Source: an uncultured bacterium (GTDB taxonomy: Bacteria > Verrucomicrobiota > Verrucomicrobiia > Verrucomicrobiales > DEV007). From it: DNA of 64,000 bases. Position 1 is the first letter of the stretch. Every line of letters begins with the position of its first letter. A program made the position numbers and the translations under genes. The notes under the pieces are model-generated. The model did no database searches, was not told the DNA's origin, and worked only from the letters and a program-made list of their open reading frames with translations. Below are positions 26,039-47,500 of this stretch, one piece after another. The stretch is taken from the NCBI GenBank assembly GCA_963977015.1, contig CAXBMO010000009.1:160001-224000 (forward strand). Reading direction: 5' to 3'.

Positions 26039-27499
26039 TTGGTTAATTCACCGCTAGCGACCAGACGCACGAACGTTGCGTTCAGAAGGTTGGGATTTCT
26101 TCTGCTTTTTATCGGGATGGTTGCTCTGGGGTGGGCACGGTTCGATTTCCGACAAATAAAGGATGGAGTGGTCCGAATTGTCGTGTTGAGTGAGGAAGCG
26201 GAAACGACGGGCAAGGGAATGATTTCGCTAGGTTCCGGATTCGTCATTTCCTCCCAAGGTCATATCGTTACAAATCAGCATATGATCGATAAACCGGGTA
26301 GGATTCTTGCGGTTCAACTTCGGGACAACAAAGTCAAAGTCTGGAGAGTCGGCGCCGTGGTGTATGAAAGCCGGGAAAAGGACTTGGCAGTCCTGCTGGT
26401 CCCCGAGCTCGGGGGCCTTCCAATCCGCCTTGCCAAGAACGATCCTTACCCTGGCGACGAAGTGATTACGATCGGATTCCCTGGCATGGCCGATGCCCAA
26501 CAGGAAAAGGATTTTTTCGTCAATGCGTTGCTGGAATCCGGGTTCCGCGACTTGCCACTGAAAGACGGTTACGTGAATTTCGTCCGGCCCTCCGTGATCC
26601 GCGGAAATGTGGAGGATGTCAGGATTCAATCAAATTGGGGACGCGACAACAATGCCCGGTGCACGATCATTCGGCATAACGCACCCACAGCCAGTGGAAA
26701 TAGCGGAGGCGCTCTGGTCAACGATTCCAACGAAATTGTCGGAGTGCATACCGCCAGCGATGCCGAGGCACGTGATGACAAAACCAAGGCCTCACAGGGC
26801 AAAAAAGTCGGCCTGGGCCTCGCCGTCAGCGAACTGATCGAAGTCCTGGAATCCGTAGGCATTCCCTACAACGAAATTCCTGCCAAGACGACCGGTGAAG
26901 TCGAACCAGGAAATTCCCGCTCGGAAACCTCCACAGCTGAAGAGGCGGCTCCCACTTGGGCCAAAGCATTGCCCTTTGTAATGATCGGTTTGGCCGTGGT
27001 ATTGGTTATTCCCGCGCTCAAGTTGCTGTTGGGAGATCGGACCTCAACAAAGACCGCACGCAGAAAGCCTCATCAACGAATCGCGGGCGAGTTCCCTTCT
27101 GCCCCGGCTTCAGAGAAGGGAGCCACGGTCGGAAACCAGAGGTCCAACCACCAATCCAACGGAAGATTACTCGGCTCGTTATCGGGCACGGACGAGCAAG
27201 GAAAACGCTACTTTTTTCAACTTTCTGCTTCCGATTTTCAGGGAAGGGGCGATAGCTTGAAAGTCGGCAGGACAGGCAATCACGTCGAGATAGCTATCCC
27301 ACATCCCAGCATTTCTCGAGTGCATGCATCCCTCCGTTATTCCCCTGACAATAATGAAATTGCACTACGTGATGAAAACTCTGCAAATGGTTGCAGAATC
27401 AACGGCAAAAAGTTGACGGCTAAGGACGGTTTTCAGCCAATCGGAGGCGGTGATTGTCTCCAGTTGGGAACTGTGAAACTGGTTTACCAGCCCGAATAA
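26039..27499 (+). CDS. Trypsin-like serine protease-TM-FHA protein T1
   Basis: Signal/anchor. Triad in GSGFVI..TNQH, KDLAVL and GNSGG. TM LPFVMIGLAVVLVIPALKLLL. FHA motifs VGR..ISRVH..SANG. Confidence 0.88.
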   Translation: MVNSPLATRRTNVAFRRLGFLLLFIGMVALGWARFDFRQIKDGVVRIVVLSEEAETTGKGMISLGSGFVISSQGHIVTNQHMIDKPGRILAVQLRDNKVKVWRVGAVVYESREKDLAVLLVPELGGLPIRLAKNDPYPGDEVITIGFPGMADAQQEKDFFVNALLESGFRDLPLKDGYVNFVRPSVIRGNVEDVRIQSNWGRDNNARCTIIRHNAPTASGNSGGALVNDSNEIVGVHTASDAEARDDKTKASQGKKVGLGLAVSELIEVLESVGIPYNEIPAKTTGEVEPGNSRSETSTAEEAAPTWAKALPFVMIGLAVVLVIPALKLLLGDRTSTKTARRKPHQRIAGEFPSAPASEKGATVGNQRSNHQSNGRLLGSLSGTDEQGKRYFFQLSASDFQGRGDSLKVGRTGNHVEIAIPHPSISRVHASLRYSPDNNEIALRDENSANGCRINGKKLTAKDGFQPIGGGDCLQLGTVKLVYQPE

Positions 27500-30426: not shown

Positions 30427-30569
30427 TCATGGAGTAGCGATCACGAATATCTTCCCCGCCTTCTCTCGCCACGCCAGAGAAGGCGGGGTTCTTGGTGGCA
30501 GGCTTGGGAAATAACATGATAACTTTTCACAAAACACCGTGGAGGCGAACGCTACTACCGGGCTGATTG

Positions 30570-31850
30570 ATGAGTTGGTTAGGCACAGATTATAGTCACA
30601 TTGGCACAAGGGACGAACAACAGGACGCCCTCGTTGTTCTCAGCAATGAAACCAAGGACCAAGTCTTTGCCGTGCTGGCCGATGGCGCAGGCGGTCACAG
30701 TGGGGGGAGATTGGCATCGGAAGCGATCGTCGCCGTCGCGACCAAACGGTGGGAAACCGCCGCTGGAGAAATACCCGACCCCGAAACGTTTTTACTCGAC
30801 TTTTTTGCCCACGCCCAAGCCCGAATTACGGCGACCGGAAAAAAGGCAGGCATCGAACCGCGGGCAACCGTCGTGGCAGTCTATGCCAACGGGAAAAGAG
30901 CAGTTTGGGGGCACTCGGGAGATTCTCGACTCTACCTGTTTCGGAAAGGTCAATTGGTCAAGCGAACCAAAGATCATTCCGTGGTGCAGATCCTCGTCGA
31001 TCAGGGAAAGGTTCGTGAAGAGGAAATGGGAACTCACCCCGACCAAGGTCGACTGCTTCAGTCGCTGGGAGGTTCCGACTATCAAGTACCAGATATTGGG
31101 AGCGCAAATATTCAGGGTGATGAAGTGATTGTTCTCTGTTCTGACGGCTTCTGGGAACACCTGCCAAAAGAAGCCATTGCCCAACTCTCCGTTCCCGGAA
31201 AATTAAAGCCTCCCAAACTGATTAAGAAGCTCGCTCACGCGGCCGTCAGTCGAGCCGGCCAGAAAGCCGACAATACAAGTGCGCTGGCGATCTACAACAT
31301 TGCCGCCAATCGGCCGGCCTTTTTCATGGGAGGAATCCATTGGGCTGCAGTTGCCTTGTTCTGCCTGTTGGCGGGAATGGTGACCTATCTTGTAATGTAT
31401 CTGATCAAGCCTGACAGCTCTCCAGGCAACCAACCTCCCGATGCTCCAGTCCAAAACGTTGCATCCCAAGTGGTTTCCGGCGGCCCCAAAACTTCTCCAG
31501 CTGATCAAGCCCCCATTCCGAACGAAAGCGAAGATATCCGCGAGGCTGGTGAAAATCCCCTTCCAAAGGCACTGGATCCAACAACAGGAAAGCCAAAAGT
31601 AAGGATTATCCCCAATATTATCCAGCCGGCTCCAGATGCCCCCACAGCTATCGTGGAGCCTGCCTCCCCAGTTGAAGAGGTGCCTGTCGAACCCACGCCC
31701 CCGCCCACCTCTCCTACAGATCAGCCAACGACGCCAGAGAACACCGGCGAGGTTCCTCCCATGTCGCCGGACTCACCACCGGCAGACGAGGAAAAGGGCA
31801 TTATTCGCAAAGGATTCGAAAAGTTAAATCCGATTAAGAGAGACAAATGA
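30570..31850 (+). CDS. PP2C/PPM phosphatase with TM and Pro-rich extracytoplasmic tail
   Basis: [54 protein letters not shown]. Confidence 0.9.
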
Positions 31851-33271
31851 AGCGCCTTCACCTACTCATCGCCCTGCTACTGGCCGCTCTTCAATCCAGT
31901 TCACTGGGATGGGATGCGAAAACTGCCGAAGACGTCGTGGTGCGAGTCGCGATTTTCACGAGTAGCGGAAAATATTCCGGTCACGGATCAGGCTTCGTCG
32001 TCAGTCGGGACGGACATGTCGTCACCAACAATCATGTGGTTCGAGGTGCCGGAACTCTATTGGTCATTCGCAAGGAATCGCCCCAGGAAATGGGGGTCTA
32101 CAAAGCTGAGGTGCTGTTCAACGACTCAGGTCTCGACATGGCCATCATCAAGGCGAAGGGAATGAAAGGAGGACCCATTTCAACCCTGGCAACGGAAGTC
32201 CCGCCCAAGGGGGATCGAGTTTATGCCGCAGGGTTTCCCGGACAGAATGATGATATTAAGGATTTGATCGCGCTGCTCAACAAGATCATGAGCGCCGATG
32301 AGTTTCCCATACACCGTAAAATCGATAGCACGACGGAAGATGCGCTCGACGTGTCCATTAAGCCGGGATTCATCGAACAAGTATCAACCAGTTCCTGGCT
32401 CAGGGCATCGACCGGAAGTGGCGGCGGAGTCGAATTGGAAATCATCAAGCACAGTGCCTCGATCGTTCACGGGAATAGCGGTGGCCCCCTTTTTGATGAG
32501 AAAACCCGGGTCATTGGCATCAACACCGCGGGAAACGCCGACGAAAAAACCTACAACAATCTCCGGCTCTCTGGAAGAATCACGGAACTCATTGATGCCC
32601 GTGCATTCAAGGATCACGACATTCACCCAATCATCAGCGGCAACACCGTCACCGCATTGAGTTTGGCTGACCCCAAAATTCTACTCCTCATTGTGCTGGT
32701 TATGGCCCTGTGTGGCATGGGCACGCTGCTTGTCGTCCATAAACAGCGTGCGGCAGCCGGCGCCAGAGGGCCCGTCCTGGTTCGAGGTGATGGCCGAACT
32801 CCCCATGCGCCCAGCCAGAACGATCAAGCCCTCACCTTGGGAACTGGGGGAGAAGTGTTGGGCCGGAGGTCTCCTGACACCAAAATCGCCGGATCAGGCG
32901 GCAATCGCCGGGGCATGCCGCCCGCGCAAAGCAATGGGCGCAACCGCTGGGTCCTGGAAGGAAATGGCCCCGACGGGAGGCACCACCGCCTTGAATTGGA
33001 TAATCGGAGATTGTCCCAATCCACCAGCGGATTAAAAATTGGTCGCAAACGCGAATCCGCAGACATTGAGCTCGACGACAGTAGCGTCTCGAGACCTCAC
33101 GCTCGAGTTTTCCTGCGCAAAACCAGCCTTTATCTGGAAGATTTGGGATCGTCAAACGGTAGCTTTGTCAATGGTGAGCGCCTTGGTGGTAAAATCCAGG
33201 CAATCAAGCTGAAAGAGAATTCTGAAGTCAAACTTGGAGAAGTCAGGTTGAGGTTTCTGCCTTTACGATAA
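31847..33271 (+). CDS. Trypsin-like serine protease-TM-FHA protein T2
   Basis: Signal peptide. Triad in TNNH, LDMAII and [31 protein letters not shown] motifs IGR..VSRPH..SSNGS. ATGA overlap with the PP2C gene. Confidence 0.9.
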
Positions 33272-34563: not shown

Positions 34564-36978
34564 CTAACTGGGTCGCAAATTTGGGATACGGATCCCATTG
34601 CGAAGAAAACCCAACTCCGTCAACTTCATCTTGCGTAGACGAAAGTAGGTCGCAAACAGCGCTCCGCCAAAATAGGGAAAAAAGAGAAAAAGGCTGAGAG
34701 CAATTCGGCTTTTTCGATAGTTATCAACACTTCCATCAACGTCGTCGATTTTCTCTTCAGAAAAATTGCCGAGCGGAGCCTTTGCATCCGGATCCCGGCT
34801 TGTTGGCGGGCCAATATATCCCTCGTAATTGAGCGCCTCCAAGTGAGAAATCGCTTCAAAAGCCCAACGTGACGGCATCACTTCCATAATCGATTTCGTC
34901 ATCACACCGGCTCGATCGTATTGCGCCAACAACCCTCCAAAAAAGATAAACGGAATCAGAATAATCGGAATAAGGACAATGGCCGTTACTTCCGTCTTCG
35001 ACCACGCACTTACCAACAGTCCCAACCCGACTCCGATCATTGAGGCAAGCCAACACACTGCAAGTCCTGCAACAGGATTGATCGTCAGATCCAGAAAATG
35101 AACGGTGAGAAACACCAAAATTGCACACTGCACCAACCCAATCACGCCCAGGACGGAAATTTTCGACATCAAATACGCCAACGGTGATTGCCCAAAGCGA
35201 GCCTCCCGATTGAAGATATTTACCTCGCCGACCAACTCTCGCGCTGAATTGTTGGTACCAAACCAGATTGCGACAAAGGTCAGAAGAAAAAGTGGAGGAT
35301 TGACTGCTTTGTCACGAAAGGCCAATGCCAGAAAAATCGCCACCAAGGGAGCCTGAATCAGAAGTATGAGGAGAGATGACCGGTCGCGCAGTTTGCATTG
35401 AACGTAGCGTTTGGTCAGTTGGAAATATTGCGTAACTGCGGAGGCTCGTTCCGACGGAGCCCGGTTCTTGGGCTTATCTTGCGGAGTTCGGCTGAGAAGA
35501 GCAAACCGTTGTCCCACGTTTTTCTCATAGTGAGATGAACCACGGTAACGGTGAGCCATGTCCTCCTCAGGAAGATCATCAATATTTTCCATGATCCCAT
35601 CAGGACCGGCTGCATCATGGTGTTGATTCGGCACAAAATATTGGATCGAATCTGGGTAGGCGGTTCCGAAATAGCAAAGGTGCCCAGCTTTGAGATAGAT
35701 CGTCTTATCCAGAAGCTTGTAAACTCGAGTCGAAGGCTGATGAATGGTGATAATGATGGCGATACCTTTGGAATCGGCAAGCTTCCGAAGAATTTCCATC
35801 ACCACCCTGGTGTCTTTCGAGGAAAGGCCGGAGGTTGGCTCATCAAGAAACAAAACCCGCGGGTCGGTCAGCAACTCGATCGCGAGATTTACCCGCTTCT
35901 TTTGGCCACCGGAGAGCGTTTTCTTTTCGGGCGAGCCGACCAATTCATCCCTTAGGTCCAGTTTACCATTCGGATCCCACAATCCCAGATCCTCGCACAA
36001 TTGATCTATCTTCTCGTGAATTGCCTCACTCGAAGTCGAAGCTGGCAACCGAAGCTTGGCATTGTAAAAAAGCACCTCCCGGACGGTCAGCTCCGCATGC
36101 ATAATATCGTCCTGAGGTACATACCCAATTTGGGACTCAAACCTTCGACGGTTGCTCAGCATGTCGATACCATTGTAGAGCACATCACCCGTGAATCCCG
36201 GCACGCTTCCACTCAGCGCATTCAAGAGTGTCGTCTTTCCACAACCCGATGGCCCAAGAAGGCCAACAAACTCACCAGGAAAAACACAAAGGTCGATACC
36301 TTGAAGAATCTTTTTCGGCTGACCAGTCCTTCGATCAGTAACTTCAAAAGTCAGCTGATCAACCTGGACGTAGATCCCCTCCCTCTCGGTCCCCACGACA
36401 ATATTTTCGGGGTTCGCCGGATCAAAATTCAACGAAATGGATACCCCACCCAACTCCAACAGGTCACTGGGGTTGATCTGGATCTTGCCGTCCGCGTAGG
36501 CCACCCCATTAATATATACAGGTGCACCTTTGGGACGAATATAGCGGACGCCTCCGCGAGTAATATTGAGCTCCGCATGATTTGGGTGGACGCTCAAATA
36601 CGGAAGTATCACCTCGTTGTTCCTCCCTGAACCAAACCGGATTTTTGCGGCATTGAACTTCTGGACGGATCCTCCCGCCCCGGATGTCAACGCCTGTCCT
36701 CCCGAATGCTCCCATTCCTCAAATCGCTTTAACAGCAAATTGCCAGGCAGACGGTAATTCTCGGAAAAATAGAAGATGTCGTCCGGGCGAACCTCCACCA
36801 ATCCATCTCGCACCTCAGAATTGAGCGAATTGAGGAACGTCCCATTGGAGCTGCCCGCATCTTCAAGATAAACCATGCCATCCCGACGGCGCATCCGTGC
36901 ATGAGTCGAGGAAACGTAGGCGTTGTTCAGCACCATATCGTTATTCGAACTTCGCCCCAGTTGAAACATCTCTGCCAT
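34564..36978 (-). CDS. FHA-FHA-ABC ATPase-ABC2 permease fusion (Rv1747-like exporter)
   Basis: FHA1 LGR..VSSTH..SSNGT and a degenerate FHA2. GPSGCGKT, LSGGQ, LFLDEPT, TIHQP, multiple C-terminal TMs. Confidence 0.92.
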   Translation of the reverse strand: MAEMFQLGRSSNNDMVLNNAYVSSTHARMRRRDGMVYLEDAGSSNGTFLNSLNSEVRDGLVEVRPDDIFYFSENYRLPGNLLLKRFEEWEHSGGQALTSGAGGSVQKFNAAKIRFGSGRNNEVILPYLSVHPNHAELNITRGGVRYIRPKGAPVYINGVAYADGKIQINPSDLLELGGVSISLNFDPANPENIVVGTEREGIYVQVDQLTFEVTDRRTGQPKKILQGIDLCVFPGEFVGLLGPSGCGKTTLLNALSGSVPGFTGDVLYNGIDMLSNRRRFESQIGYVPQDDIMHAELTVREVLFYNAKLRLPASTSSEAIHEKIDQLCEDLGLWDPNGKLDLRDELVGSPEKKTLSGGQKKRVNLAIELLTDPRVLFLDEPTSGLSSKDTRVVMEILRKLADSKGIAIIITIHQPSTRVYKLLDKTIYLKAGHLCYFGTAYPDSIQYFVPNQHHDAAGPDGIMENIDDLPEEDMAHRYRGSSHYEKNVGQRFALLSRTPQDKPKNRAPSERASAVTQYFQLTKRYVQCKLRDRSSLLILLIQAPLVAIFLALAFRDKAVNPPLFLLTFVAIWFGTNNSARELVGEVNIFNREARFGQSPLAYLMSKISVLGVIGLVQCAILVFLTVHFLDLTINPVAGLAVCWLASMIGVGLGLLVSAWSKTEVTAIVLIPIILIPFIFFGGLLAQYDRAGVMTKSIMEVMPSRWAFEAISHLEALNYEGYIGPPTSRDPDAKAPLGNFSEEKIDDVDGSVDNYRKSRIALSLFLFFPYFGGALFATYFRLRKMKLTELGFLRNGIRIPNLRPS

Positions 36979-37053
36979 TTTTCTAGTGTCTCAAAATTGA
37001 ACTCAGCTTAGGTTGCGGGGCACCTTTGGCCCTGCTTTTTGGGTTGCCGAAAA

Positions 37054-37833
37054 TCATACAACCCGAAAGACAACGACGGTTATATTGTCCTGCCGGTCTT
37101 TCCGGCGCGATTCCACTGTCTGGATCAGTTGCTTACAGACAACGGATGCATCCGATGCTTCATGAATCTCAATCGTTGCCCGCAGTTTCTCCAAAGGAAG
37201 CGTATCCAAGCCATCGGTAGCCACAATGATCATGTCACCTTTCTCCACTTCTACCGGAGGTTTGCCCTGATCAAGAGCGCCTTCCGTCAACGGCTCACCA
37301 ATGATCGCTGATCGGAGGACATTTCGATCCGGGTGATTCTCAGCATCCTCAGCCGTCATTTCACCCCGCTCAACCTGGGCTGCCAAAATTGGCGCCATCG
37401 AATGGTCATCGTTGAGCCTTTTGAATTGCTTGGAAGCTCTGCTGAAATGATAGAGGGTGGAATCTCCGATGCTCGTCCAACGCAGCATGTTGTCCCTCAA
37501 GAATGCCGCAACCAGCGTGGTGCCCATGCCCGAGTAGGTTTGGGGCTCTTCTTCGCACAACTTGCGAATCGCCTCGTTGGCACCTCGCAAGCCCTTTGAT
37601 AGTCTCACCGTATCGACGTCGAGCGACTCAGAAAATTCGCGAAGGAAATTTTCCGTTGCCACTCGACTTGCAATATCTCCGGCCGCATGTCCGCCCATCC
37701 CATCCGCGACGACGACGAGTAGGTCTCCGCCCCGAACTCCGAGCGCATCTTCAATTGCAACCTGATAGTAGTCTTCCTGATAGGGACGATCACCTTGAGA
37801 TTGCCTTCCAGCAATATCCCGTTCAGGCTCCAT
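37054..37833 (-). CDS. Soluble PP2C/PPM phosphatase
   Basis: GDRPYQED, ADGMGGH, GMGTT, IGDS, DHS, ATDGL, QDNIT. Confidence 0.93.
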   Translation of the reverse strand: MEPERDIAGRQSQGDRPYQEDYYQVAIEDALGVRGGDLLVVVADGMGGHAAGDIASRVATENFLREFSESLDVDTVRLSKGLRGANEAIRKLCEEEPQTYSGMGTTLVAAFLRDNMLRWTSIGDSTLYHFSRASKQFKRLNDDHSMAPILAAQVERGEMTAEDAENHPDRNVLRSAIIGEPLTEGALDQGKPPVEVEKGDMIIVATDGLDTLPLEKLRATIEIHEASDASVVCKQLIQTVESRRKDRQDNITVVVFRVV

Positions 37834-38519
37834 TAGACGAGGGTATTGTCACTCCAGTCAAATTGTTCGCCACACAGAGGAACAAACTTGAGGGTGGTCC
37901 CTCCAATTCGAATCAATTCTCCGCCAGCAAGCTCAACAGGAGTCAAAACCGGGCTTTGCTCGGCGCCCAGGTAGGTGAGGTTGCTGCCTTGGGTGTTCGG
38001 TTGAACGAAATATTTTCGACTGCGCGGATCATAGGTAATAATCGCGTGGGCACTTCGCGAAACTTCCTGATCACCAAACGGCAACGGAACGCGGTTGTCA
38101 GGATTACGACCGATTTGATTCATGCCATAACCCAAAGTCAAGGCGCTGCCACGGCCTGGTCCCGCAACAATGACAACCCAGCCAACAACCGGGTCTTCGA
38201 TTTCACCGGGAGCTTGGGGATTGCCCTGTGCAACGCCGCCTGCAGGAGCAATTCCTGGTGCGGGCTCGATACCACCTGCCGCCACAGGCCTAACCAAACG
38301 CGTCTTGTCGCTGTCAGCTCCAGAATTCGATCCCGGCCCACCCTGCGAAGCAGGCTGATTGATCACTGAGGTGTTGTCATCCTGGATGCCTGAGCGCTCA
38401 ACAATTCGGGTTGCTTCCGGATCATCGCTACTGGTTCTCCTGATCTCCTGGCTCTGTTCTTGATAGTCCGCATCGCTTGGGCGTCTACGAATAATTCGAG
38501 TCGTGTCATCGTTGCTCAT
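37833..38519 (-). CDS. FHA protein with disordered N-terminal tail bearing repeated Thr motifs (GarA/OdhI-like architecture)
   Basis: FHA motifs IGR..VSRSAH..GSN. Tail motifs DDTTRII, EATRIV, DNTSVI, DKTRLV. TAATG overlap with the PP2C gene. Confidence 0.88.
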   Translation of the reverse strand: MSNDDTTRIIRRRPSDADYQEQSQEIRRTSSDDPEATRIVERSGIQDDNTSVINQPASQGGPGSNSGADSDKTRLVRPVAAGGIEPAPGIAPAGGVAQGNPQAPGEIEDPVVGWVVIVAGPGRGSALTLGYGMNQIGRNPDNRVPLPFGDQEVSRSAHAIITYDPRSRKYFVQPNTQGSNLTYLGAEQSPVLTPVELAGGELIRIGGTTLKFVPLCGEQFDWSDNTLV

Positions 38520-38544
38520 TACTTAGTATAGGTTGAGTTCCGCC

Positions 38545-39375
38545 CTAGCGGGCTTTTTTTTCAAGAAGTCGGTTAATCAAATTATCAAACGTGTATTGGC
38601 CGGCACGGTTGAGCGAACGCTCCTCTCCGCCTTGCACGAAGTTCATCACCAACATCAGGACTCCGCTCATGACCAGGGCAACCAAGGTGGTATAAAAAGC
38701 AACGCCCAATCGCGCCGTGGTCGGTCCCAGAAGATTATCCGGATCGATCCCGTCTCTGCCCGCAAAAGCCAACGCATCTGCAATCCCAATCACAGTTCCA
38801 ATAAATCCCATGGTGGGGATTACCCAAACCACGTAACGAATGAGGTTATAGCGCAAATCCAGTTCGTGAAGGCAGAGTTCCAGGTTGGAATTCAGCAAGT
38901 TGTTGGCTTGATCAACGGAATCCGATTTCCGGAATTGGATGATGGTTCTCCGAATCAATTTGGGGAGAAAATAGCTTTGATTCGCTTTGTTGACCCGTTT
39001 GTAGATTGGAGTGAGGTCCTCGTGAGTGAGAATCGTTTGTTCGTCTTCCGGCAAAAATTCCAGACTCAGTTGATGCTTTTCTTTCGAAGCGGCCCGATGC
39101 CGCAACCACAATTCACCAAGCCCCAAACAAAGGGCAATCCACATGAAGGCCTGAACTGAAAAATATCCGTATTCCTCTTTTCCATCCTCAACGCGGCGGT
39201 TGATGAGGATCTGGGAAAAATCCACCTTCGTGTATTCACCGCTCGCATCCTCGCCTTTTATCTGAATCGGAGGAATCATATTCAAGGTTACGATGATCGC
39301 CACCCCGACCAAGAAGGCAATGAGCCCCACAACCAAGCGCTGCGCATCAAAAACGCTGTCTGACTGATCATTCAT
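38545..39375 (-). CDS. MotA/TolQ/ExbB proton channel family protein
   Basis: IPTMGFIGTVIGI and LGVAFYTTLVAL helices plus two N-terminal TMs. Confidence 0.88.
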   Translation of the reverse strand: MNDQSDSVFDAQRLVVGLIAFLVGVAIIVTLNMIPPIQIKGEDASGEYTKVDFSQILINRRVEDGKEEYGYFSVQAFMWIALCLGLGELWLRHRAASKEKHQLSLEFLPEDEQTILTHEDLTPIYKRVNKANQSYFLPKLIRRTIIQFRKSDSVDQANNLLNSNLELCLHELDLRYNLIRYVVWVIPTMGFIGTVIGIADALAFAGRDGIDPDNLLGPTTARLGVAFYTTLVALVMSGVLMLVMNFVQGGEERSLNRAGQYTFDNLINRLLEKKAR

Positions 39376-39791
39376 CGCCGAATAATTTCTCCCGTTTCTG
39401 GATCCAGGTATGCACCACCACCCTGCCGTGGAGCAGGTGAAGGCTGGGCCGGAGGTTCCGGTTCAGGCGGTGCGGCAGGCGGATCTTCCGGTGAGTGCAA
39501 CGGAGGAGCAATCAGGTCAAGCAGATCCCCCACAGACGTCTGGTACTGCTGCCCGAGGCGCAACGGAGTATCTCGCCTGACATTCCCCTGATTGATTGGC
39601 ACCCAATCCCCATTCTCCCAAATTTCCGTTCCGTTCTGGCCACTGATGTCCACGACCAGAAAATCTCTTCCCCCTGTATCCGTAATCTCCAAATGCTGTC
39701 GACTCACAGCATCCTGATCCTCCGGCACGCTAATGTCGCAGGGTTTCGTATGGTTCTTTCGACCAACAATGTAGACCTTACGGTTTGCCAT
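39372..39791 (-). CDS. Small FHA protein with Pro-rich tail
   Basis: VGR..VSRQH..QNGT. Tail ends YLDPETGEIIRR. ATGA overlap with the MotA-like gene. Confidence 0.82.
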   Translation of the reverse strand: MANRKVYIVGRKNHTKPCDISVPEDQDAVSRQHLEITDTGGRDFLVVDISGQNGTEIWENGDWVPINQGNVRRDTPLRLGQQYQTSVGDLLDLIAPPLHSPEDPPAAPPEPEPPAQPSPAPRQGGGAYLDPETGEIIRR

Positions 39792-39808
39792 ACTTCCTCA
39801 TTCTTTTA

Positions 39809-41269
39809 CTAATTCACGCGAAAGCGCATTTTCACTTCTCCCAGCTCCAACGTGTCACCGTCGCGCAATGCCGACTGCTCCACTCGCTTTCCGTTCACGT
39901 AAATTCCGTTTCCTGAGTCCAGATCCGTTACGGACCAACTGCCATCTCGACTCTGATTGATCACGCAGTGGCTATTGGAAACACTGTCGTTGCGCAACAC
40001 CAAATCATTGTCATTCCCCCTCCCGATTCGCATGTTGGTGATCGTGATCTGTTCCTGGCTCCCATCAGCATCCAACATCTCCAACCATCCATACACGTGA
40101 TTCGAGAACTGGGGAGCGACCGGAATATCATCATAAATTTCTGTGGCTTCCCCGGAAATGACCGGATCAACGTCATTGCCTCCCGAAAGTTTGCGCAGCA
40201 GCAATGCCAAAATCACAATGGCAACGGCGACTGCGGCAATGATGATGTAGAGAACGGTATTATCGGTGGCCTCGCCTCCATTAGGATCGTCCCCCCCGGT
40301 GGCACCAACGGCCCCGGATGAGGATTTCACCTCAATTTCCCGCTTAATCTTGTCTCCTTTTTCGGTTTCGATCTCAATCGTCACTTTCGAATTCCCGCTC
40401 AGTGCCGACGCATCGAGAACCAGTCTGCCTCCACTTTCAGCAAAGGGATAAAATACCTCTTTGTCGAAATCCTCCGGCAACTTGTAAGTGCCGTATTCAG
40501 CCCGCTTATAAAGCCCTTTTGTTGGCTCAACCATTCGCCGTAACGACTGCAAAAACTGGGACTTGTCCTTCTCGTTCTGAGCATACCCAAGAGCACTGAT
40601 CACGACGCCCGCCTTTTTTGCCTGTTTCTCAACCTCGGCGACAAGGTCAACCAACTCTCCCTGGTCCTCGTATTCGCCGTCGGAAAAGATGATGAGATGC
40701 TTTCGATCCGCGTCGCTCTTGGCCAGTTTCGCAATCAATTCACGGGTAAGCTGGAAAATCTGGGTGGTCTTTCCCTTTGCCTTGTGTTTCTCGAGCTCGC
40801 GAATCGCGAACCCGGAATTTTGGCCGAGCTCCGCCACGGTGGTGAGCGTGTCGGCTTCAATGGTAAAGACTCCAAATTTATGAACCGGCGATGCTGGCGT
40901 CATCATGCGCTTGGCGTGAGTGATCTCCCAATCATTGCGCTTCTTAAAAATCGCCGCCTCCGGTGCACTCAGGTCAATCAACAAGGCGATATCGCTCGAG
41001 ACTCCCTCCACCTCGACAAAGGGCAGATAGGACTTCACAGCCACTTCTGCGTCTCCACTCAAGGCCTTGATCGAATCCTTCTTGACGGTAACAGCCTTGG
41101 AATCCATGAGGGTCGGGTTAATGGCCTCCGGATCCCACAACCGAAAGTCGATCGAAATGGTATTGGCCTCATCATCATGAGTTGGTCCCGATAGGACCAT
41201 GATTTCTCCGCCCAAAGAAAGCGCGGCAAATGTTAACAGCGAAAATAATCCTGTCGCGATCGATTTCAT
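39809..41269 (-). CDS. Signal peptide-vWA-TM-FHA protein
   Basis: LLIDLS, LIIFSDG, VVISALG (vWA with imperfect MIDAS). TM YIIIAAVAVAIVILALLL. FHA motifs IGR..VSNSH..SGNG. Confidence 0.85.
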   Translation of the reverse strand: MKSIATGLFSLLTFAALSLGGEIMVLSGPTHDDEANTISIDFRLWDPEAINPTLMDSKAVTVKKDSIKALSGDAEVAVKSYLPFVEVEGVSSDIALLIDLSAPEAAIFKKRNDWEITHAKRMMTPASPVHKFGVFTIEADTLTTVAELGQNSGFAIRELEKHKAKGKTTQIFQLTRELIAKLAKSDADRKHLIIFSDGEYEDQGELVDLVAEVEKQAKKAGVVISALGYAQNEKDKSQFLQSLRRMVEPTKGLYKRAEYGTYKLPEDFDKEVFYPFAESGGRLVLDASALSGNSKVTIEIETEKGDKIKREIEVKSSSGAVGATGGDDPNGGEATDNTVLYIIIAAVAVAIVILALLLRKLSGGNDVDPVISGEATEIYDDIPVAPQFSNHVYGWLEMLDADGSQEQITITNMRIGRGNDNDLVLRNDSVSNSHCVINQSRDGSWSVTDLDSGNGIYVNGKRVEQSALRDGDTLELGEVKMRFRVN

Positions 41270-41476
41270 AGCATGATTAAACTGGGCAGCCCTTCTGGTT
41301 GGGATTTCGAACGATCATAACCTTTTGTCAGGAAGGACCCCAACGTTAACACAGCTAAAATCGGCTTGTTGAAATCCAAACTCCGGTGAGCCGAACCTTG
41401 GTAAATGTTGGTAACGAATGGCTGTATTCCGGTCAAGTCCAATTCGATTTGTTTTTCCCGCATCTGAACCCGGCAT

Positions 41477-42463
41477 TTAGTTTCCTAAAGAACTAAGCCC
41501 AACAAATTGTCCTCCATTGCGATCAGCAAGCTTGAAAAGGAAGGATACGAACTCCGCATCCTCGGTATAATCCCCAACCGCCACCGTGTGGATTTCCTTC
41601 CTCCCAGCATTTTGACTGGTGATTTGGCTCAAAATTTCGTCGTGGGTCGCATCATTGGGATTTCCATCAGTGAACAGAATGACCGCCTCCGCCGAGCTGT
41701 TAAGCGCCTTTTTGAGCGCGGTCAGGGTTGGGGTTTGCCCCCGGAACTCCGAGGTCCACTTGCGGACCGTCGCCTTGGCTTCCGAAATCCCGCTGCTGTT
41801 CATCGTCCGCAAGGTTGGAAACGGTTCCGGCCAAACGTGAAAAATGGGTGTGGTCGCCTCGGTACTGTCCGTATGAAACCCCAGCATCGACATCTGATAA
41901 CCGGAATCCATGGGATCGACCATTTGCGCCACGGCCTGTTCGGTAATCGTTTTGTATTCTTTCATACTTCCCGACATATCCACCACAAAAATGAGCTTTT
42001 TGGCTTGGGTCACAATTCCGAGAAAAGCCAACCGGTGGGCCTCTTCCAACTCTCGTTCCAAGGATCTGGCGCGTTCTTCGGCATTGCGACGAGCGACTTC
42101 CAGGTCTTTTACCTGCCGATTCGCCTTTTTCTTGGCTTCTTCCAAACTCGCGACGGCACTGCGGGCCTCCGCCTGGGCTTGATTGGCCTTCTGCCGCATC
42201 GCCTCTGCCTCATCGGCGTTCACCCGAGCCATTTTTTCGGCTTCGATTCGTGCTTCAACGGCCTTTCTGGAAGCGCTTTCCGCTTGCGCCCGCAGTTGCT
42301 CCAAAAGAAAGACGTTTCGTTGAGCCTCCTCAAAATCCCGCGAGGTCTTCTGGTAATACTGCGTCAGAATGATCATCAGCAGCATGAACGCCCCCATCGC
42401 ACACGCAAAAAGGTCAACCATGGACAGACTGAACGTCTCAATCGTGCGGCTGCGTTTTCTCAT
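41477..42463 (-). CDS. ExbD/TolR-like N-terminal TM, coiled coil and vWA domain protein
   Basis: MRKRSR..FSLSMVDLFACAMGAFMLLMII (Asp at the start of the TM), A/E/K/R-rich coil, MIDAS DMSGS..T..TDG. Confidence 0.85.
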   Translation of the reverse strand: MRKRSRTIETFSLSMVDLFACAMGAFMLLMIILTQYYQKTSRDFEEAQRNVFLLEQLRAQAESASRKAVEARIEAEKMARVNADEAEAMRQKANQAQAEARSAVASLEEAKKKANRQVKDLEVARRNAEERARSLERELEEAHRLAFLGIVTQAKKLIFVVDMSGSMKEYKTITEQAVAQMVDPMDSGYQMSMLGFHTDSTEATTPIFHVWPEPFPTLRTMNSSGISEAKATVRKWTSEFRGQTPTLTALKKALNSSAEAVILFTDGNPNDATHDEILSQITSQNAGRKEIHTVAVGDYTEDAEFVSFLFKLADRNGGQFVGLSSLGN

Positions 42464-42821
42464 GTCCTGCCATTTTGCATAAGTTCGATCTGGGAAAAAC
42501 TGTTCTAATCGATCAGATCGTCAACCTCAAGTATCAATCTGACAAGGCCCCGCCAAAAGCCTTCGCCCAATACCGGAATCACACTTTTTTCGCATTCGGA
42601 GCAAACAGTTCCGACCGGAATTCGAAATGCATCCAGTCGAAGTGATCCCAAGGAAGGTAAAAGCGTAACTTCGCATTTCCCGACATCGAAAGTTCAACGG
42701 AAGCGGGCGGTAGGAGGCTCCAATTCGATTGCCTCGTAAGATTAGGCTTGCCGACGAAAGCGCTCACGGTTTAAAAACGATCGTAGGCTATATTGATAAT
42801 CAAACGGCAGGATTCCAAGTG

Positions 42822-44561
42822 ATGGACGCGATACAGGAGCGACGACCATTGAAACCGCGGTCTCGATTGGGTGACTACCGAATCGACCAAGTCCTTCAAC
42901 AGGGAGGTCTCGTCGTGTCCTATCTCGCTCACGATCTGCAGTTGAAGAAACCGGTGGTGGTCGAGGAATTGGTTCCGCAGGGCCTGGCTGGTCGCTCCTC
43001 GGGCGAGGCGGTGTTGCCATCGAATGGTGAATGCCCGGTTACGTTCGCCCAGGCGAAAGAGGCGTTTATCGCGGAAACGAAATTGGTCGCCGGAATCACT
43101 CATCCCAATGTGATTCACGTCCTGCGCTTGTTTGAGGCAAACAACACGGCCTATCGCGTTGTCGAGCACGTGCGGGGGCCGAATTTGGAGACGTTTCTGA
43201 GCCTTGCCGAAAAGCCCATTCCGGCTCACACGCTACGCAGACTCCTGAGCCAGATTCTGGCCGGACTCGAACGCATCCATCAACGCGGGTTTGCTCACCT
43301 CGGCATCTCACCGGTCACGATCATGGTGGCGGAGGATACGAAGCGGCCCGTCTTGGCGGAATTCGGGATCGCCCGCGCCAAGTTGCGAAACTCCGGTTGG
43401 ACGAACTCCGAAATCGCGGGCGACTGCCTTGCTCCCGAGCTTTCACCTTCCGTGCCCGATGAAGCGGGCCCGCACTCCGACATCTATGCTTTCGCCAAAA
43501 CGATCCATCGGGCCTTGATCGAAAGTTCTCCGGAACGCGATCAAATATCCGGAGCGGAGGGACTGAGTGGTGACTCGATCCTGATCAACCGCTATGGCCT
43601 TGCGTTTTTGAGGGAACTCGAGCGGGGATCCAGTCAAAATCCCGCAACTCGGCCACAGAGTGCTTCCGAATGGTCAGAGTTGCCTGAACTGCTTTCTCCT
43701 CATGAAGCAGATCCCAAACCGGCGCAAATCCTGACACGGAGAAAAAAGGGGGGAAGTTGGCGAATTGGAAACGGGTTTTGGAAGCTTCTTCACCAGGACG
43801 GTGAGTCCGCCCCCGTTGAATCCAAGGCGATTCAAAGCACTCCAGCAATTATCGAACCGCCTCCCGCCATTGATCCTGACCCCGTTGTCGCCCCCCCTGA
43901 AGTTTTGCCAGCCGAGCCGCCACCAGTTTCCAAGCCCCTGGTGGCGGATGTCCCAATTATTGAGCCCCCTTCCGCAGTAGACGAAGTTCTGGAAATACCG
44001 GTCCCCCTACCGGTTTCGGTCCCGGACCACCAAGTACCGGCCATACCAGAGGATCCCGTGGAAGCCATTCACGAAAACGAAATCCCTTCCCCTGCCGCGA
44101 ATTCCTCCCCCACTCCAGAATCTCCTCCAGAATCTCCTCCAGAATCTCCTCCAGAATCTCCTCCAGATTCCGTGCCATTGCCGCTCGTTGCCCCGCTACC
44201 TCCTCCGGCTCCCGTTGAGGAGATCCCGCAAAAACCTGCCCAACCAACCGTCACCTCGCTGGAGATCATCGCCGGTCCCGGGCAGGGCAATTCTCTTCCT
44301 CTCGGCACAGGCCTCAATCGGATCGGTTCCAGCGGCGAAAACGAGATTCCGCTTCAGTTCGGCGATGCACAGGTTGCCCAGATTGCCCACGCCTTCATCC
44401 TGCGCGACCCGAAGCGACAAGCCTTCTTCCTGCAACCCAACGTGTCCGGCGCAGCACTCCTTTATCTGGGGGAAGACGAGTCGCTCGTTTTGGCTCCTGT
44501 CGAATTGCGCGGCGGCGAGCTGATTCGCATTGGGAACACCAAGCTGAGGTTCATGGCCTAG
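42822..44561 (+). CDS. Pseudokinase K4, Pro-rich linker and degenerate FHA
   Basis: Kinase fold with QQGGLVVSY, VVVEEL, HLGISPVT and EFG. C-terminal FHA closely similar to 37833-38519. Start taken at ATG 42822. Confidence 0.85.
   Translation: MDAIQERRPLKPRSRLGDYRIDQVLQQGGLVVSYLAHDLQLKKPVVVEELVPQGLAGRSSGEAVLPSNGECPVTFAQAKEAFIAETKLVAGITHPNVIHVLRLFEANNTAYRVVEHVRGPNLETFLSLAEKPIPAHTLRRLLSQILAGLERIHQRGFAHLGISPVTIMVAEDTKRPVLAEFGIARAKLRNSGWTNSEIAGDCLAPELSPSVPDEAGPHSDIYAFAKTIHRALIESSPERDQISGAEGLSGDSILINRYGLAFLRELERGSSQNPATRPQSASEWSELPELLSPHEADPKPAQILTRRKKGGSWRIGNGFWKLLHQDGESAPVESKAIQSTPAIIEPPPAIDPDPVVAPPEVLPAEPPPVSKPLVADVPIIEPPSAVDEVLEIPVPLPVSVPDHQVPAIPEDPVEAIHENEIPSPAANSSPTPESPPESPPESPPESPPDSVPLPLVAPLPPPAPVEEIPQKPAQPTVTSLEIIAGPGQGNSLPLGTGLNRIGSSGENEIPLQFGDAQVAQIAHAFILRDPKRQAFFLQPNVSGAALLYLGEDESLVLAPVELRGGELIRIGNTKLRFMA
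44113..44167 (+). repeat. 12-bp tandem repeat CTCCAGAATCTC, four perfect copies plus a partial copy, encoding (PESP)n
   Basis: Read directly from the sequence. Confidence 0.95.
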
Positions 44562-44591: not shown

Positions 44592-47500
44592 ATGATCAAG
44601 TTAAAAGTTTTTGTCAGTTCTCCCGGCGATGTGGCCCGCGAACGGGAAATCGCCCGGCGCGTCATGGCGAGGGTCGAGAATCGATTCGCCGGACAAGTTG
44701 AGATTGAACCCTATCTTTGGGAACACGAACCGCTCCAGTCTTCGGCGGATTTTCAGGGCAACATTCCCCCAACCTCCTCATTCGATCTCGTCATTTGCAT
44801 CCTTTGGACGAGGCTGGGAACTCGTCTCGGACCGCAATATCAAACGACGGAAGGGAGGCGCTTCAACTCCGGAACCGAGTTTGAGGTGTTGACCACCATT
44901 GAAGCTCAAGATCAACCGCCACAGGGGCTTCCCATTCTCAGCATCTTTTTGAACAAGACGGATTGGAAGGTGCCGACCCAAGATCTTAGTGCCGCGCAAA
45001 GTCAATTGGCTCAACTCCAAAAGCTCCGCGACTTTTTGGCTCAATTGTTTTTTGAGCAGGATGAAGAAGATGAGTCGGTGACCCTGAACAAACGCGCGTT
45101 CAATCAATACCATTCCCTCGATCAATTTGAGGATCTCTTGAACAAACAGATCGTTCAGCTGATCGAGAAGAAGCTCCGTGACCGACCCGAAGGCGGACTG
45201 GCCCCGCCCGAAAAGCGGAAGGCCAGTTGGAAGGGAAATCCCTATCGCGGCCTGGAGGTCTTCGAATTCAAACACGCCGCCATTCTTTATGGGAGAACCC
45301 GGGCAACCGAGTCCGTTCTCAATGCCCTGAAGTCCAGATGGGACGCTGGTTGCGGCTTCACCCTGATTTTGGGAGCCAGCGGAACCGGAAAAAGCAGCCT
45401 CGTTCGCGCCGGGGTGTTGCCTCTCCTCATTCAACCCGGCGTCGTCGAAAAGGTCGGGCTTTGGCGGCGTGCCTCGATCATGCCCGGCCGGTCTTCCGGC
45501 GATGCGATGGATGCCTTGTCAGCCGCCCTCCTCTCCCCCGAAGCCCTGCCCAACCTCGCCCCCATCGAAGATTCCGAGCGCGTTCACCAATTGGCCGCCG
45601 AACTGCGAACCATGCCGGAGTTTGTCGCCGATAGAATCCGAGACGAACTTCGTCAGGCCGGGCACACCTGGTTGGTGGAAGAAAAAGTGAAGCTGAACGA
45701 GAAAGCCAGCCAACTGAGCCGGGAAGGGCGGAGTCAGGACGCGGCGACACTGGAAGCGCAAATCCAGGGGATGGCCGCCCCGGAAACCCGGTTGGTCATT
45801 TTGGTCGATCAGTTTGAGGAACTCTTTACCTCGACCATTTCCGAAGAAGCCAGAATCGAGTTTGTGCGGGTCATCGACTGTTTCGCGAGAATGGGAGAGA
45901 CGGCGGTGATTGCAACGATGCGTTCGGATTTCTATGCGTCCTACCAGCGCTATCCCTTGCTGATCAACCTTGCCGGTGAAACGGGGAGAGTCGATCTCAC
46001 CCCGCCTCAACCCATTGAAATCGGGGAAATGATCCGAGGTCCCGCGGAAGCCGCCGGTTTACAGTTTGAGATCGATGCGGAAACCAATCAATCGCTCGAC
46101 GAAGCCTTGCGTGACGCCGCCATGGAAAGCCCCGAAGGTCTTCCCTTGTTGGAGCACGTTCTCAAGTTGCTGTTCCAGCTTCAAGCAGAACGTCAGGACG
46201 GCTGGCTTCGGTGGGAAGACTATCGAAAGCTGGGTGAGTTTTCGGGCGCTCTATCCCAACATGCTGATCAGGTTCTGGGCCAGTTGAAGAGCAGTTCCCT
46301 GGAAGTCCTGGACGATGTGCTCGAAAGCCTGATCACGGTTGGAGTCAGCGAAGAGAGCAAGCCGGTGCGACGAATTGCCAGATACGACCTGGTCGCAACC
46401 CATCCGGCCGTTTCCAATTTGATCGAAGCGTTCGTGGATGCCCGACTTTTTACAACCGGCAAGGATGAACAGGGCCGGGCGACGGTTTCCGTGGCTCACG
46501 AAGCCCTGCTTCGCGTCTGGCCACGAATCACCGAGTGGATTGAGGAGAACCGCGATTTCCTGCAAATGCGAGCCCGGCTCGAAACCGCTCGAAAAGCGTG
46601 GGAAGCCGCCAAAGAACACCCGGACTTTCTCCTGGATCACGGCCGCCCTCTCGCTGAGGCGGAAGAGCTTCAAAGCCGATATGGAAGCGCCTTGGCCGAG
46701 CGAGACCGCACCTTTATCCGCCTCTCCAGCGCCGCGGTCCACCGCGTGGAAAACCGGAATCGCCGCATTCGCCGAACCGTCCTCTCCGGAATTTCCACGC
46801 TCGCCCTGATCGCAATCGGCTTTGCCATCTTTGCCAATCGCATGCAGGCGAAGGCGGTCGAAGAACGGCAGGCCACCGAAGCGGCAAACCTGGCAATCTT
46901 GAAAGGCAACGCGAGATCTGCAAAACAATCGCACAAATTGGCGGAGGCCGCGCTTTGGGACGTCGCCTTGATTGAGGCGAAACAACGCCTGGGGCAACCC
47001 AACCGGCTGGATCAGCTTCGCCTGCTCGCCTTGGAACCGGAATTAGATTTCTTTCGCTGGCGCTTGCCGAGCAATGGCAGAGTCCGGCAAATCGTTCCAC
47101 GTTCTTCGGGCGAATCCGTCTTTCTCAATCTCGGTTCCCGGGATCTGCTTCACGCGACACGAAACGAAGATGGAGATTGGAACCTTGAAGCATTGAACGC
47201 GATCCGCGAGCCGGTCTTCACCATCGCCCCATCGCCCGGAGACGAAGGCATTCTGTTCGTCATCACCAGACAAAAACTCATCGCCATGAACGTGAATTCC
47301 ATGACGCAGCTTTGGGAGTTTGCGGCGGACGAAGGTGAGTTTTCGCCTGCCCTGTCGGTGACCGAAAACGTTTGGGTTTGGCTGGGCAATCAGCTTCTCG
47401 GGATTGATCCCTCCAAAGGAACCGTCAAGGTCTCCATGCAGACCGGCCTTTCCTCCGCGTCGACCATTGACGCCGCCGTGATCGACGCCGCGCAAGGGAA

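Follow-up and report, generated by a model that had tools for sequence, protein, structure and literature searches.

The window analysed here is a 64,000-nucleotide stretch of an uncultured verrucomicrobial genome (GCA_963977015.1, contig CAXBMO010000009.1, positions 160,001 to 224,000), and its minus strand carries seven closely packed open reading frames (ORFs) between positions 34564 and 42463, referred to as g1 to g7 in reading order. We propose, with a probability of roughly 60%, that g4 and g1 are the ring and shaft subunits of an ion-driven 5:2 motor of the TolQ/ExbB type and that this motor is part of a Ser/Thr phospho-relay. The run is a single-shaft-gene variant of the tolQ-like/"transpore-helix vWA" (TPH-vWA) family that was predicted in 2025. 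A first-pass annotation, made from the sequence alone, had read g4 as a MotA/ExbB channel and g1 as its single-transmembrane (single-TM), Asp-bearing partner, with a vWA domain at its end in place of an ExbD or OmpA domain. Conservation across genomes supports this pairing, and a vWA-headed partner for a MotA/ExbB-type channel is, on sequence comparison, well supported.

The putative shaft subunit, g1, starts with a short, basic N-terminus, which is followed by a transpore helix (residues 11-37), a helical stalk (residues 38-142), and a vWA head (residues 145-325). The helix features the motif SMVDLF (residues 14-19), which includes Asp17, and the head carries an intact metal ion-dependent adhesion site (MIDAS) made up of DMSGS at residues 162-166 (D162, S164, and S166), T244/T246, and D266; both the Asp-bearing helix and the DMSGS site lie where the first-pass annotation had placed them. 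An AlphaFold 2 (AF2) model with a predicted local distance difference test score (pLDDT) of 87 contains a single helix from residue 15 to residue 142 and then a confident alpha/beta domain, for which Foldseek returned the vWA domains of ITIH1, CMG2/ANTXR2, and BatB and the I domains of integrins. With D-x-S-x-S, Thr, and Asp on a modelled vWA fold, the head is classified as a vWA/MIDAS domain, and metal binding is predicted. If continuous, the approximately 105 helical residues of the stalk beyond the membrane would, by an arithmetic estimate, reach about 15 nm. A word-indexed search for relatives of g1 recovered 60 at E <= 1e-3, and 34 of them were aligned. Their best conserved stretch is S-A-x-D-L-F-A-x-A-x-G-A-F, within the N-terminal helix region, and the membrane Asp is present in 32/32 aligned relatives with an N-terminus (two further rows are N-terminally incomplete) and in 22/22 sequences of a second shaft alignment. 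Conservation of this residue had been named as a check on the annotation, and the Asp is kept in every full-length copy.

The putative ring subunit, g4, belongs to the MotA/TolQ/ExbB family (PF01618) by a Pfam score above the gathering cut-off and a predicted TolQ/ExbB fold. Foldseek matched its AF2 model (pLDDT 87.7) most closely to TolQ (8vlw_B; TM-score 0.72, probability 1.00), then to ExbB, with PomA, MotA, and ZorA ranked lower. Compared with TolQ, g4 carries one more TM helix at its N-terminus and a small beta insert on the periplasmic side (residues 38-69), both ahead of the TolQ-type core. The two pore motifs of g4, G-F-I-G-T194-V and A-F-Y-T229-T230, are invariant among 20 diverse homologues (the second as A-F-x-T229-T230), and a family-profile alignment to TolQ (8vlw/9avi) spans the core and places T194 and T230 on the TolQ G-T-V and A-T threonines.

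To assess co-occurrence, one genome per species was scanned, which yielded 258 confirmed g1 relatives. The best 80 loci were kept, and their ORFs were called and searched with the seven window proteins and then with profiles of our own. Two tandem genes of the Asp-TM/coil/vWA type are found in 73 of the 80 loci, and a g4 homologue lies within ~3 kb of the vWA gene(s) in 68 (67 by ORF, plus locus L005, in which a run of N breaks the channel gene and tblastn recovered it). Nine of the 12 loci without a channel stop at a contig edge where the gene would be expected. The 80 loci span five phyla, namely Verrucomicrobiota, Pseudomonadota, Binatota, Latescibacterota, and Rhodothermota. Co-occurrence of channel and vWA partner across genomes was the other check named in the annotation, and the linkage far exceeds chance; g1 and g4 are a conserved pair.

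This pairing has been described before. Section 8 and Fig. 4c-d of a recent paper (PMC12204202; Mol Biol Evol 2025;42:msaf138) present, as a computational prediction, tolQ-like genes paired with TPH-vWA genes. The vWA homologues are TM-tethered and tightly associated with tolQ homologues, with neither tolR nor exbD; they possess a conserved Asp in the transpore helix and occur "predominantly in heterologous pairs" in Proteobacteria and Verrucomicrobia. An AlphaFold 3 (AF3) 5:2 model of homologues is also given there, with the Asp pair inside a threonine ring, and the function is stated to be unknown. The suggestion of a possibly new class in the first-pass annotation is therefore withdrawn, since the pairing, the Asp, the threonine ring, and the AF3 5:2 model are all contained in that paper. 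The window agrees with this family in that g4 adjoins a TM-tethered vWA gene in one run with no tolR, exbD, or motB beside it, in that Asp17 of g1 represents the conserved transpore-helix Asp, and in that the invariant T194, T229, and T230 would supply the threonine ring of the lumen. It departs from the family in the heterologous vWA pair; its genome encodes one transpore-helix protein. The main text of PMC12204202 contains no mention of kinase, phosphatase, phosphoryl, or sulfatase, and FHA appears only within the name FhaC. Several features reported here were not found in that main text, though flanking genes may be shown in Fig. 4c or the supplement: the wiring to genes for FHA proteins, PP2C, and Ser/Thr kinases, the motif of the FHA tail, the split of the shaft paralogues into intact and degenerate MIDAS forms, and the FGE-sulfatase partner. 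Full-text literature searches returned no other paper on the motor family and none on its FHA/kinase wiring.

Relative to the paired shafts of most loci, g1 resembles the first gene. All five MIDAS residues are intact in 78/79 first-gene ("a") copies, and g1 carries the same residues; 71/72 second-gene ("b") copies lack one or more of them. The membrane Asp is found in 75/79 "a" copies (the other four have no N-terminus in the ORF call) and in 72/72 "b" copies. Stalk lengths of paired paralogues covary (r 0.95 and a median difference of 3 residues over 67 related, non-independent pairs), which fits a two-stranded stalk. The window's own genome, which is 95% complete, encodes g1 as its single transpore-helix protein, with a MIDAS intact as in "a" copies, so the shaft here would be a homodimer. 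A shaft tree built on 43 rows (sampled from the 151 shaft sequences, together with two outgroup rows) has long branches and a midpoint root. The "b" copies form one clade (98/96) and seventeen "a" copies another (94/80), and the single-gene forms (the window with L001, L002, and L009 with L010) fall outside both at an unresolved fork of this midpoint-rooted tree.

Three relatives illustrate the range of shaft genes. In L001, the closest relative and a sister metagenome-assembled genome (MAG) whose g1 is 69% identical, an extra short Asp-helix-vWA protein without a stalk is encoded. It is located, along with a kinase, a 553-aa ORF without assignment, and a retropepsin-like aspartyl protease, in ~6 kb between g1 and g2 (L001:10997-17166) that are absent from the window. 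At E <= 1e-10, g1 as a query matches 2/301 sampled genomes of the phylum; the second is a 2-Mb genome of the same class (G018), whose distant version of the set runs channel, shaft, shaft (L087:7738-10672). One of these shafts has an intact MIDAS and one an altered MIDAS, and our profiles gave no FHA, kinase, or PP2C match in the 18.9-kb stretch. Finally, a shaft-type protein at L010:11738-12514 has the same Asp helix and coiled stalk with a beta-rich, non-vWA head, which indicates that the helix-stalk module carries exchangeable heads.

We propose the following working model. Five g4 chains would form a ring, and two g1 chains would insert their Asp17-bearing N-terminal helices into its pore. 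Passage of protons by way of Asp17 and the ring of T194 and T229/T230 would turn ring and shaft against each other. Each g1 would extend through its stalk to the MIDAS vWA head in the periplasm, where the head would either grip a partner or be moved by the motor. The shaft of most relatives would combine one MIDAS-intact and one MIDAS-degenerate paralogue; that of the window would consist of two copies of g1. The motor is probably embedded in, and gated by, a Ser/Thr phospho-relay. Its members would be the kinase-FHA protein encoded divergently from g1, the PP2C phosphatase g6, two FHA proteins (g5, with its T-x-x-[I/V] sites, and the small g3, which is translationally coupled to g4), the vWA-TM-FHA adaptor g2, and the FHA-FHA-ABC exporter g7. 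Of this model, the domains, folds, conserved residues, and linkage of the genes are observed, whereas the 5:2 assembly, the drive by protons, the phospho-gating, and any output are inferred.

The features of the run and its surroundings are listed in Table 1. The ORFs were confirmed at the annotated coordinates, and Pfam found every domain that had been annotated for the seven minus-strand genes. The stop of g3 overlaps the start of g4 (ATGA) and the start of g6 overlaps the stop of g5 (TAATG), while gaps of 17 nt, 25 nt, and 207 nt separate g2 from g3, g4 from g5, and g1 from g2, respectively. A scan of the run for consensus promoters and terminators gave counts at shuffle level and is uninformative, and NCBIfam offers no family-level name for any of g1-g5.

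Table 1. Features of the motor run and its surroundings in the window (domain calls for g1-g7 are Pfam)
Feature	Position	Strand	Description
g1	41477..42463	-	328 aa; one N-terminal TM, long helix, vWA; VWA_3 E 8.5e-13
g1 transpore helix	42353-42433	-	residues 11-37
g1 Asp17	42413-42415	-	within SMVDLF
g1 helical stalk	42038-42352	-	residues 38-142
g1 vWA head	41489-42031	-	residues 145-325
g1 DMSGS	41966-41980	-	residues 162-166
g2	39809..41269	-	486 aa; signal-like N-terminus, VWA E 3.4e-6, TM, C-terminal FHA E 6e-20
g2 vWA-like domain	40475-40993	-	residues ~93-265; predicted periplasmic
g2 TM	40190-40255	-	residues 339-357 (TM scan)
g2 FHA	39812-40057	-	predicted cytoplasmic
g3	39372..39791	-	139 aa; small FHA protein, predicted cytoplasmic
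g3 C-terminal tail	39384-39404	-	D-P-E-T-G-E-I
g4	38545..39375	-	276 aa; MotA_ExbB 38.2 bits (cut-off 22.9)
g4 pore motif 1	38791-38808	-	G-F-I-G-T194-V
g4 pore motif 2	38686-38700	-	A-F-Y-T229-T230
g5	37833..38519	-	228 aa; C-terminal FHA, disordered N-terminal half
g6	37054..37833	-	259 aa; PP2C Ser/Thr phosphatase; PP2C_2 E 1.9e-14
g7	34564..36978	-	804 aa; FHA, FHA, ABC_tran, ABC2_membrane
Ser/Thr kinase divergent from g1	42729..44561	+	Pkinase (Pfam); Pro-rich linker, C-terminal FHA of g5 type
nSTAND1 NTPase	44592-49928	+	1778 aa; directly after the divergent kinase
ORF without Pfam match	49745-53401	+	1218 aa
Kinase-TIR fusion	53415-56102	-	
Trypsin-TM-FHA protein	26039-27499	+	predicted periplasmic protease domain, one TM, cytoplasmic FHA
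Trypsin-TM-FHA protein	31847-33271	+	same layout
Membrane PP2C	30567-31850		beside the trypsin-TM-FHA genes, as are membrane kinases

Among the putative relay members is the small protein g3. Its FHA domain is followed by a Pro-rich linker and a short C-terminal tail. In 32 loci, the gene immediately before the channel is an FHA ORF; 31 of these 32 ORFs carry the tail [N/D/T]-[P/T]-x-T-G-x-[I/V] within the last 40 residues, versus 37 of 5936 ORFs overall. T133 and G134 of g3 are invariant in 22/22 aligned small FHA proteins, and the canonical phospho-threonine pocket is present in g3 (R11, S30, H33, and N53). A Thr with Ile or Val at the +3 position is the classic FHA ligand pattern. The same pattern recurs in g5, whose disordered N-terminal half contains four T-x-x-[I/V] sites (T6/7, T37, T50, and T73) and whose FHA domain is followed by the conserved C-terminal segment F-V-P-L-C-G-E-x-F-D-W; the 13 g5 relatives listed from beside the channel in other loci have the same layout, with an arm that bears T-R-[ILV]-[ILV]-type sites. 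Both proteins recall FHA switches of the GarA/OdhI type; GarA likewise pairs its FHA domain with a disordered arm that bears T-x-x-[I/V] sites, but the putative phospho-site of g3 lies on the C-terminal side of the FHA domain.

The adaptor candidate, g2, combines a vWA-like domain and a beta-rich segment with a TM helix and an FHA domain. Its MIDAS is partial (D99-x-S101-x-P, T169, and D197). The periplasmic part has one close homologue, an exhaustive HMMER scan identified 348 distant representatives, and the N-terminal part was found in 2/301 sampled genomes of the phylum. Fifty aligned family members share the order signal peptide, vWA, beta segment, TM, FHA; these retain D99, S101, T169, and D197 but not the third MIDAS Ser. 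The g2 family also aligns by hhalign to a protein whose gene immediately precedes the channel gene in five loci of Pseudomonadota (probability 99.4 over 393 columns, including the periplasmic part; identity is only 14%, and the FHA domain accounts for much of the score). This protein ends in a T-G tail in four of the five loci, and the fifth is cut by the contig end. Based on the match, g2-like adaptors accompany the motor in two or more distantly related lineages.

The remaining members are a phosphatase, an exporter, and a kinase. The phosphatase g6 matches the NCBIfam Stp1/IreP model at E 4e-43 but falls under the model's cut-off. Downstream, g7 is an ABCG-type half transporter, with a nucleotide-binding domain (NBD) and an ABC2 membrane domain behind two N-terminal FHA domains, and its sequence matches in the PDB are Pdr5/Cdr1 and ABCG1/2/25. 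It shares this arrangement of two N-terminal FHA domains, NBD, and ABC-2 membrane domain with the mycobacterial Rv1747, which is described as regulated by the kinase PknF (PMC3138270); the likeness is one of architecture. The kinase encoded divergently from g1 matches our FHA profile at residues 528-608 (E 5.8e-10) and is called soluble, as it has no TM helix. Its listed start is TTG, and the true start codon may be downstream. An orthologue in L001 has the same layout, and by position the protein is likely the cognate kinase of the run.

Across the 80 loci, our profiles delineate a recurrent order: shaft, shaft, an optional small FHA protein, channel, an optional signal-peptide-X-TM-FHA protein, and a periplasmic FGE-sulfatase-domain protein. 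The last gene is found in 56/80 loci, fused to a kinase in 29, split in one, and without a kinase in 26 alphaproteobacterial loci. These 26 loci consist solely of the shaft pair, the channel, and the FGE-sulfatase protein, with no kinase or FHA match in the available stretch, which indicates that the core requires no signalling or effector set. Elsewhere, genes for FHA proteins, PP2C, and kinases are found repeatedly in the operon in different phyla, and the phospho-control raised in the first-pass annotation is plausible on the basis of these conserved neighbours. A sub-block of channel, g5-type FHA, and PP2C is present in the window, L001, L007, L009, L033, and L070. In gammaproteobacterial loci, the channel is followed by a ~500-aa FHA protein that aligns to g2 in the FHA part only. 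This FHA part also aligns to a trypsin-FHA protein of the window and 3/16 members match Trypsin_2, a lead by sequence likeness that the periplasmic domain of the gammaproteobacterial protein may be trypsin-like.

These associations allow a more specific reading, which we consider speculative and unlikely to hold as a whole. The small FHA protein upstream of the channel would act as a kinase-switchable clutch on the 5:2 motor, with its invariant P-x-T-G-x-[I/V] tail as the switch. Powered by the proton motive force (PMF), the motor would pull through the MIDAS head on a periplasmic partner, and its mechanical or PMF state would be converted into a Ser/Thr phospho-signal. The partner that is pulled would be g2 in the window's lineage and the FGE-sulfatase-domain receptor kinase in most others, and the signal would control tethered periplasmic proteases, the ABC exporter, and immune-like effectors. 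If true, this would be the first phospho-regulated 5:2 motor and the first used for transmembrane signalling.

The TolQR, ExbBD, MotAB, and PomAB 5:2 motors (8vlw, 9ddo, 8brd) resemble the g4/g1 pair in the ring fold, the pore threonines, and a single-TM Asp partner with its N-terminus inside. They differ in that the periplasmic part of g1 is a long stalk with a vWA head rather than a TolR/ExbD or a peptidoglycan-binding OmpA domain, in the extra N-terminal TM helix and beta insert of g4, and in that the contig encodes no TonB/TolA-like transducer. The annotated absence of TonB and TolA stands and extends from the run to the whole contig, which holds none of the genome's 3 TonB_C matches; flagellar genes, also annotated as absent, were not searched for. 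Assignment of g1 to ExbD, TolR, or MotB by its periplasmic domain was rejected, as it consists of helix and vWA and contains no ExbD/TolR or OmpA-like domain.

The nearest working analogy is the Agl-Glt gliding machinery of Myxococcus. As described in PMC11761067, a TolQ-type ring (AglR5) encloses a shaft made of two proteins (AglQ/AglS), the FHA-TM protein GltG is predicted to be seated on that ring, and the vWA protein CglB provides the adhesive end. In the same description, however, the adhesin CglB is a lipoprotein of its own in the outer membrane, the shaft is built from TolR-like proteins, and the membrane orientation of GltG is opposite to that of g2; no glt genes were noted in the window. 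Zorya ZorAB is likewise a MotAB-type motor outside flagella that signals to cytoplasmic partners. The window differs from Zorya in that a long ZorA tail, the peptidoglycan-binding domain of ZorB, and ZorC/D are all missing. PADLOC gave a single Zorya match, that of g4 to ZorA2 at E 5.9e-5, which is confined to the channel core, and the other 13 proteins tested had no Zor match.

Several observations weigh against the assignment of g4 and g1 to a 5:2 motor under phospho-control. The experimental record contains nothing for any family member. Matches to solved chains are weak: the g4 family profile is closest to TolQ (8vlw/9avi) at E 0.14, and the single g4 sequence is closest to MotA and PomA at E ~0.2. 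In the helix region of g1, no Pfam ExbD (PF02472) or MotB match appears even at E 10, and a profile of the first 50 residues retrieved only chance hits from the PDB (insect Orco chains, E 0.14). With no homology to ExbD, TolR, or MotB detectable, the "ExbD-like" label of the first-pass annotation describes topology and the Asp, not homology. Three loci (L023, L054, and L063) retain the vWA pair and FHA genes with no channel at that spot; each holds both shaft genes, three FHA genes, and a kinase-FGE-sulfatase gene, and two of them have a complete second cluster 70-80 kb away on the same contig (L064 and L052). The window is an atypical member, as it has neither the second shaft paralogue of most relatives nor any FGE-sulfatase domain among its proteins, though such a gene follows the channel in 56/80 loci. 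For the phospho-control, all four pocket residues are kept in only 14/22 small FHA proteins, g3 among them, so a simple switch in which the FHA domain reads its own phosphorylated tail is not general; the tail is better conserved in sequence than the pocket and may dock elsewhere. Furthermore, a comparison of the cytoplasmic domain of FHA-linked and FHA-less channels revealed no FHA-specific residues, only two conservative differences (V/I and L/M) in a comparison confounded by phylogeny.

The surroundings of the run look like a conflict or immune-type island. The flanks encode six Ser/Thr kinases (one TIR-fused), two trypsin-TM-FHA proteins, a membrane PP2C, and an nSTAND1 NTPase. The trypsin-TM-FHA architecture also adjoins the shaft gene in L009 and L010. 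These genes raise an unlikely alternative with Zorya-like logic, in which the motor senses that PMF has been lost, or that the vWA head has undergone a mechanical or contact change, and reports this to the kinase network as envelope stress or as part of an anti-phage response; the network would then control the nearby membrane-tethered trypsin-like proteases, the TIR-kinase, and the STAND NTPase. The richness of the window in such conflict-type genes is consistent with a sensor, as are the CHAT and trypsin-FHA genes that flank relatives, the patchy distribution of g1 in the phylum, and the weak ZorA2 match. However, that match reflects a generic channel domain, and PADLOC found no system model that fits, nor anything specific. 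The alphaproteobacterial loci without kinase or FHA match also argue against a sensor, and gene neighbourhood alone is weak evidence.

Another alternative dispenses with rotation altogether. Here, g1 and g2 would be membrane-anchored vWA scaffolds of a signalling module of vWA, FHA, PP2C, and kinase proteins, g4 would be their structural partner in the membrane, and the Asp would contribute to helix packing or oligomerisation and not to the transfer of protons. Channel-free operons of this general composition are described: a Deinococcus operon combines vWA, kinase, PP2C, and FHA genes (bioRxiv 10.64898/2026.01.23.701218), and kinase-PP2C-vWA neighbourhoods of actinobacteria are reported in PMC7159879, whose account of them does not mention ExbB/TolQ. 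The lack of ExbD/MotB homology in the g1 helix and the three channel-less loci point the same way. Against this, the buried Asp in every full-length copy from five phyla, taken with invariant threonines at TolQ positions, is the signature of a 5:2 motor, and the channel accompanies the vWA genes in 68/80 loci, including loci without signalling genes. We rate a static scaffold as less probable than a sensor and well below the motor.

It is highly improbable that g4 instead partners an ordinary ExbD/TolR encoded elsewhere, with g1 a merely co-regulated neighbour: the genome has 22 ExbD-family matches from which such a partner could come, but none is on the window's contig, those with listed positions adjoin their own ExbB genes on other contigs, and g4 travels with vWA genes in 68/80 loci. 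Of the 18 MotA_ExbB-family matches in the genome, those that adjoin ExbD genes score 77-109 bits and g4 scores 39.8 bits, a gap that places g4 in a different subfamily. The genome's ordinary ExbB/ExbD set is unusually large, but its TonB_C matches number only 3. A second motor-like set is located outside the window on contig C17 (L086:7053-10973). Its MotA/ExbB-family protein (503 aa) begins with a zinc-ribbon-like segment and ends in a long coiled tail. Two single-TM coiled-coil proteins (277 and 508 aa) come next, of which the second has Asp residues in or near the TM helix and the first has none.

Finally, to our knowledge, few jobs are known for 5:2 ion-driven motors, namely flagellar rotation, Ton uptake, Tol-Pal, gliding, and Zorya. 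The list would grow by one with the present family, whose shafts bear adhesion-type heads and which occurs here in five phyla. It offers several experimental handles, including the Asp and pore threonines, the pair of active and degenerate metal sites, the matched stalks of ~100 residues, an FHA partner whose Thr-Gly tail is invariant, and a recurring periplasmic FGE-sulfatase-domain partner. The window's own value is modest, as a rare single-shaft-gene form from a marine verrucomicrobial genome, linked to an FHA-ABC exporter. If the phospho-control is real, it would mean that Ser/Thr kinases can gate 5:2 motors.

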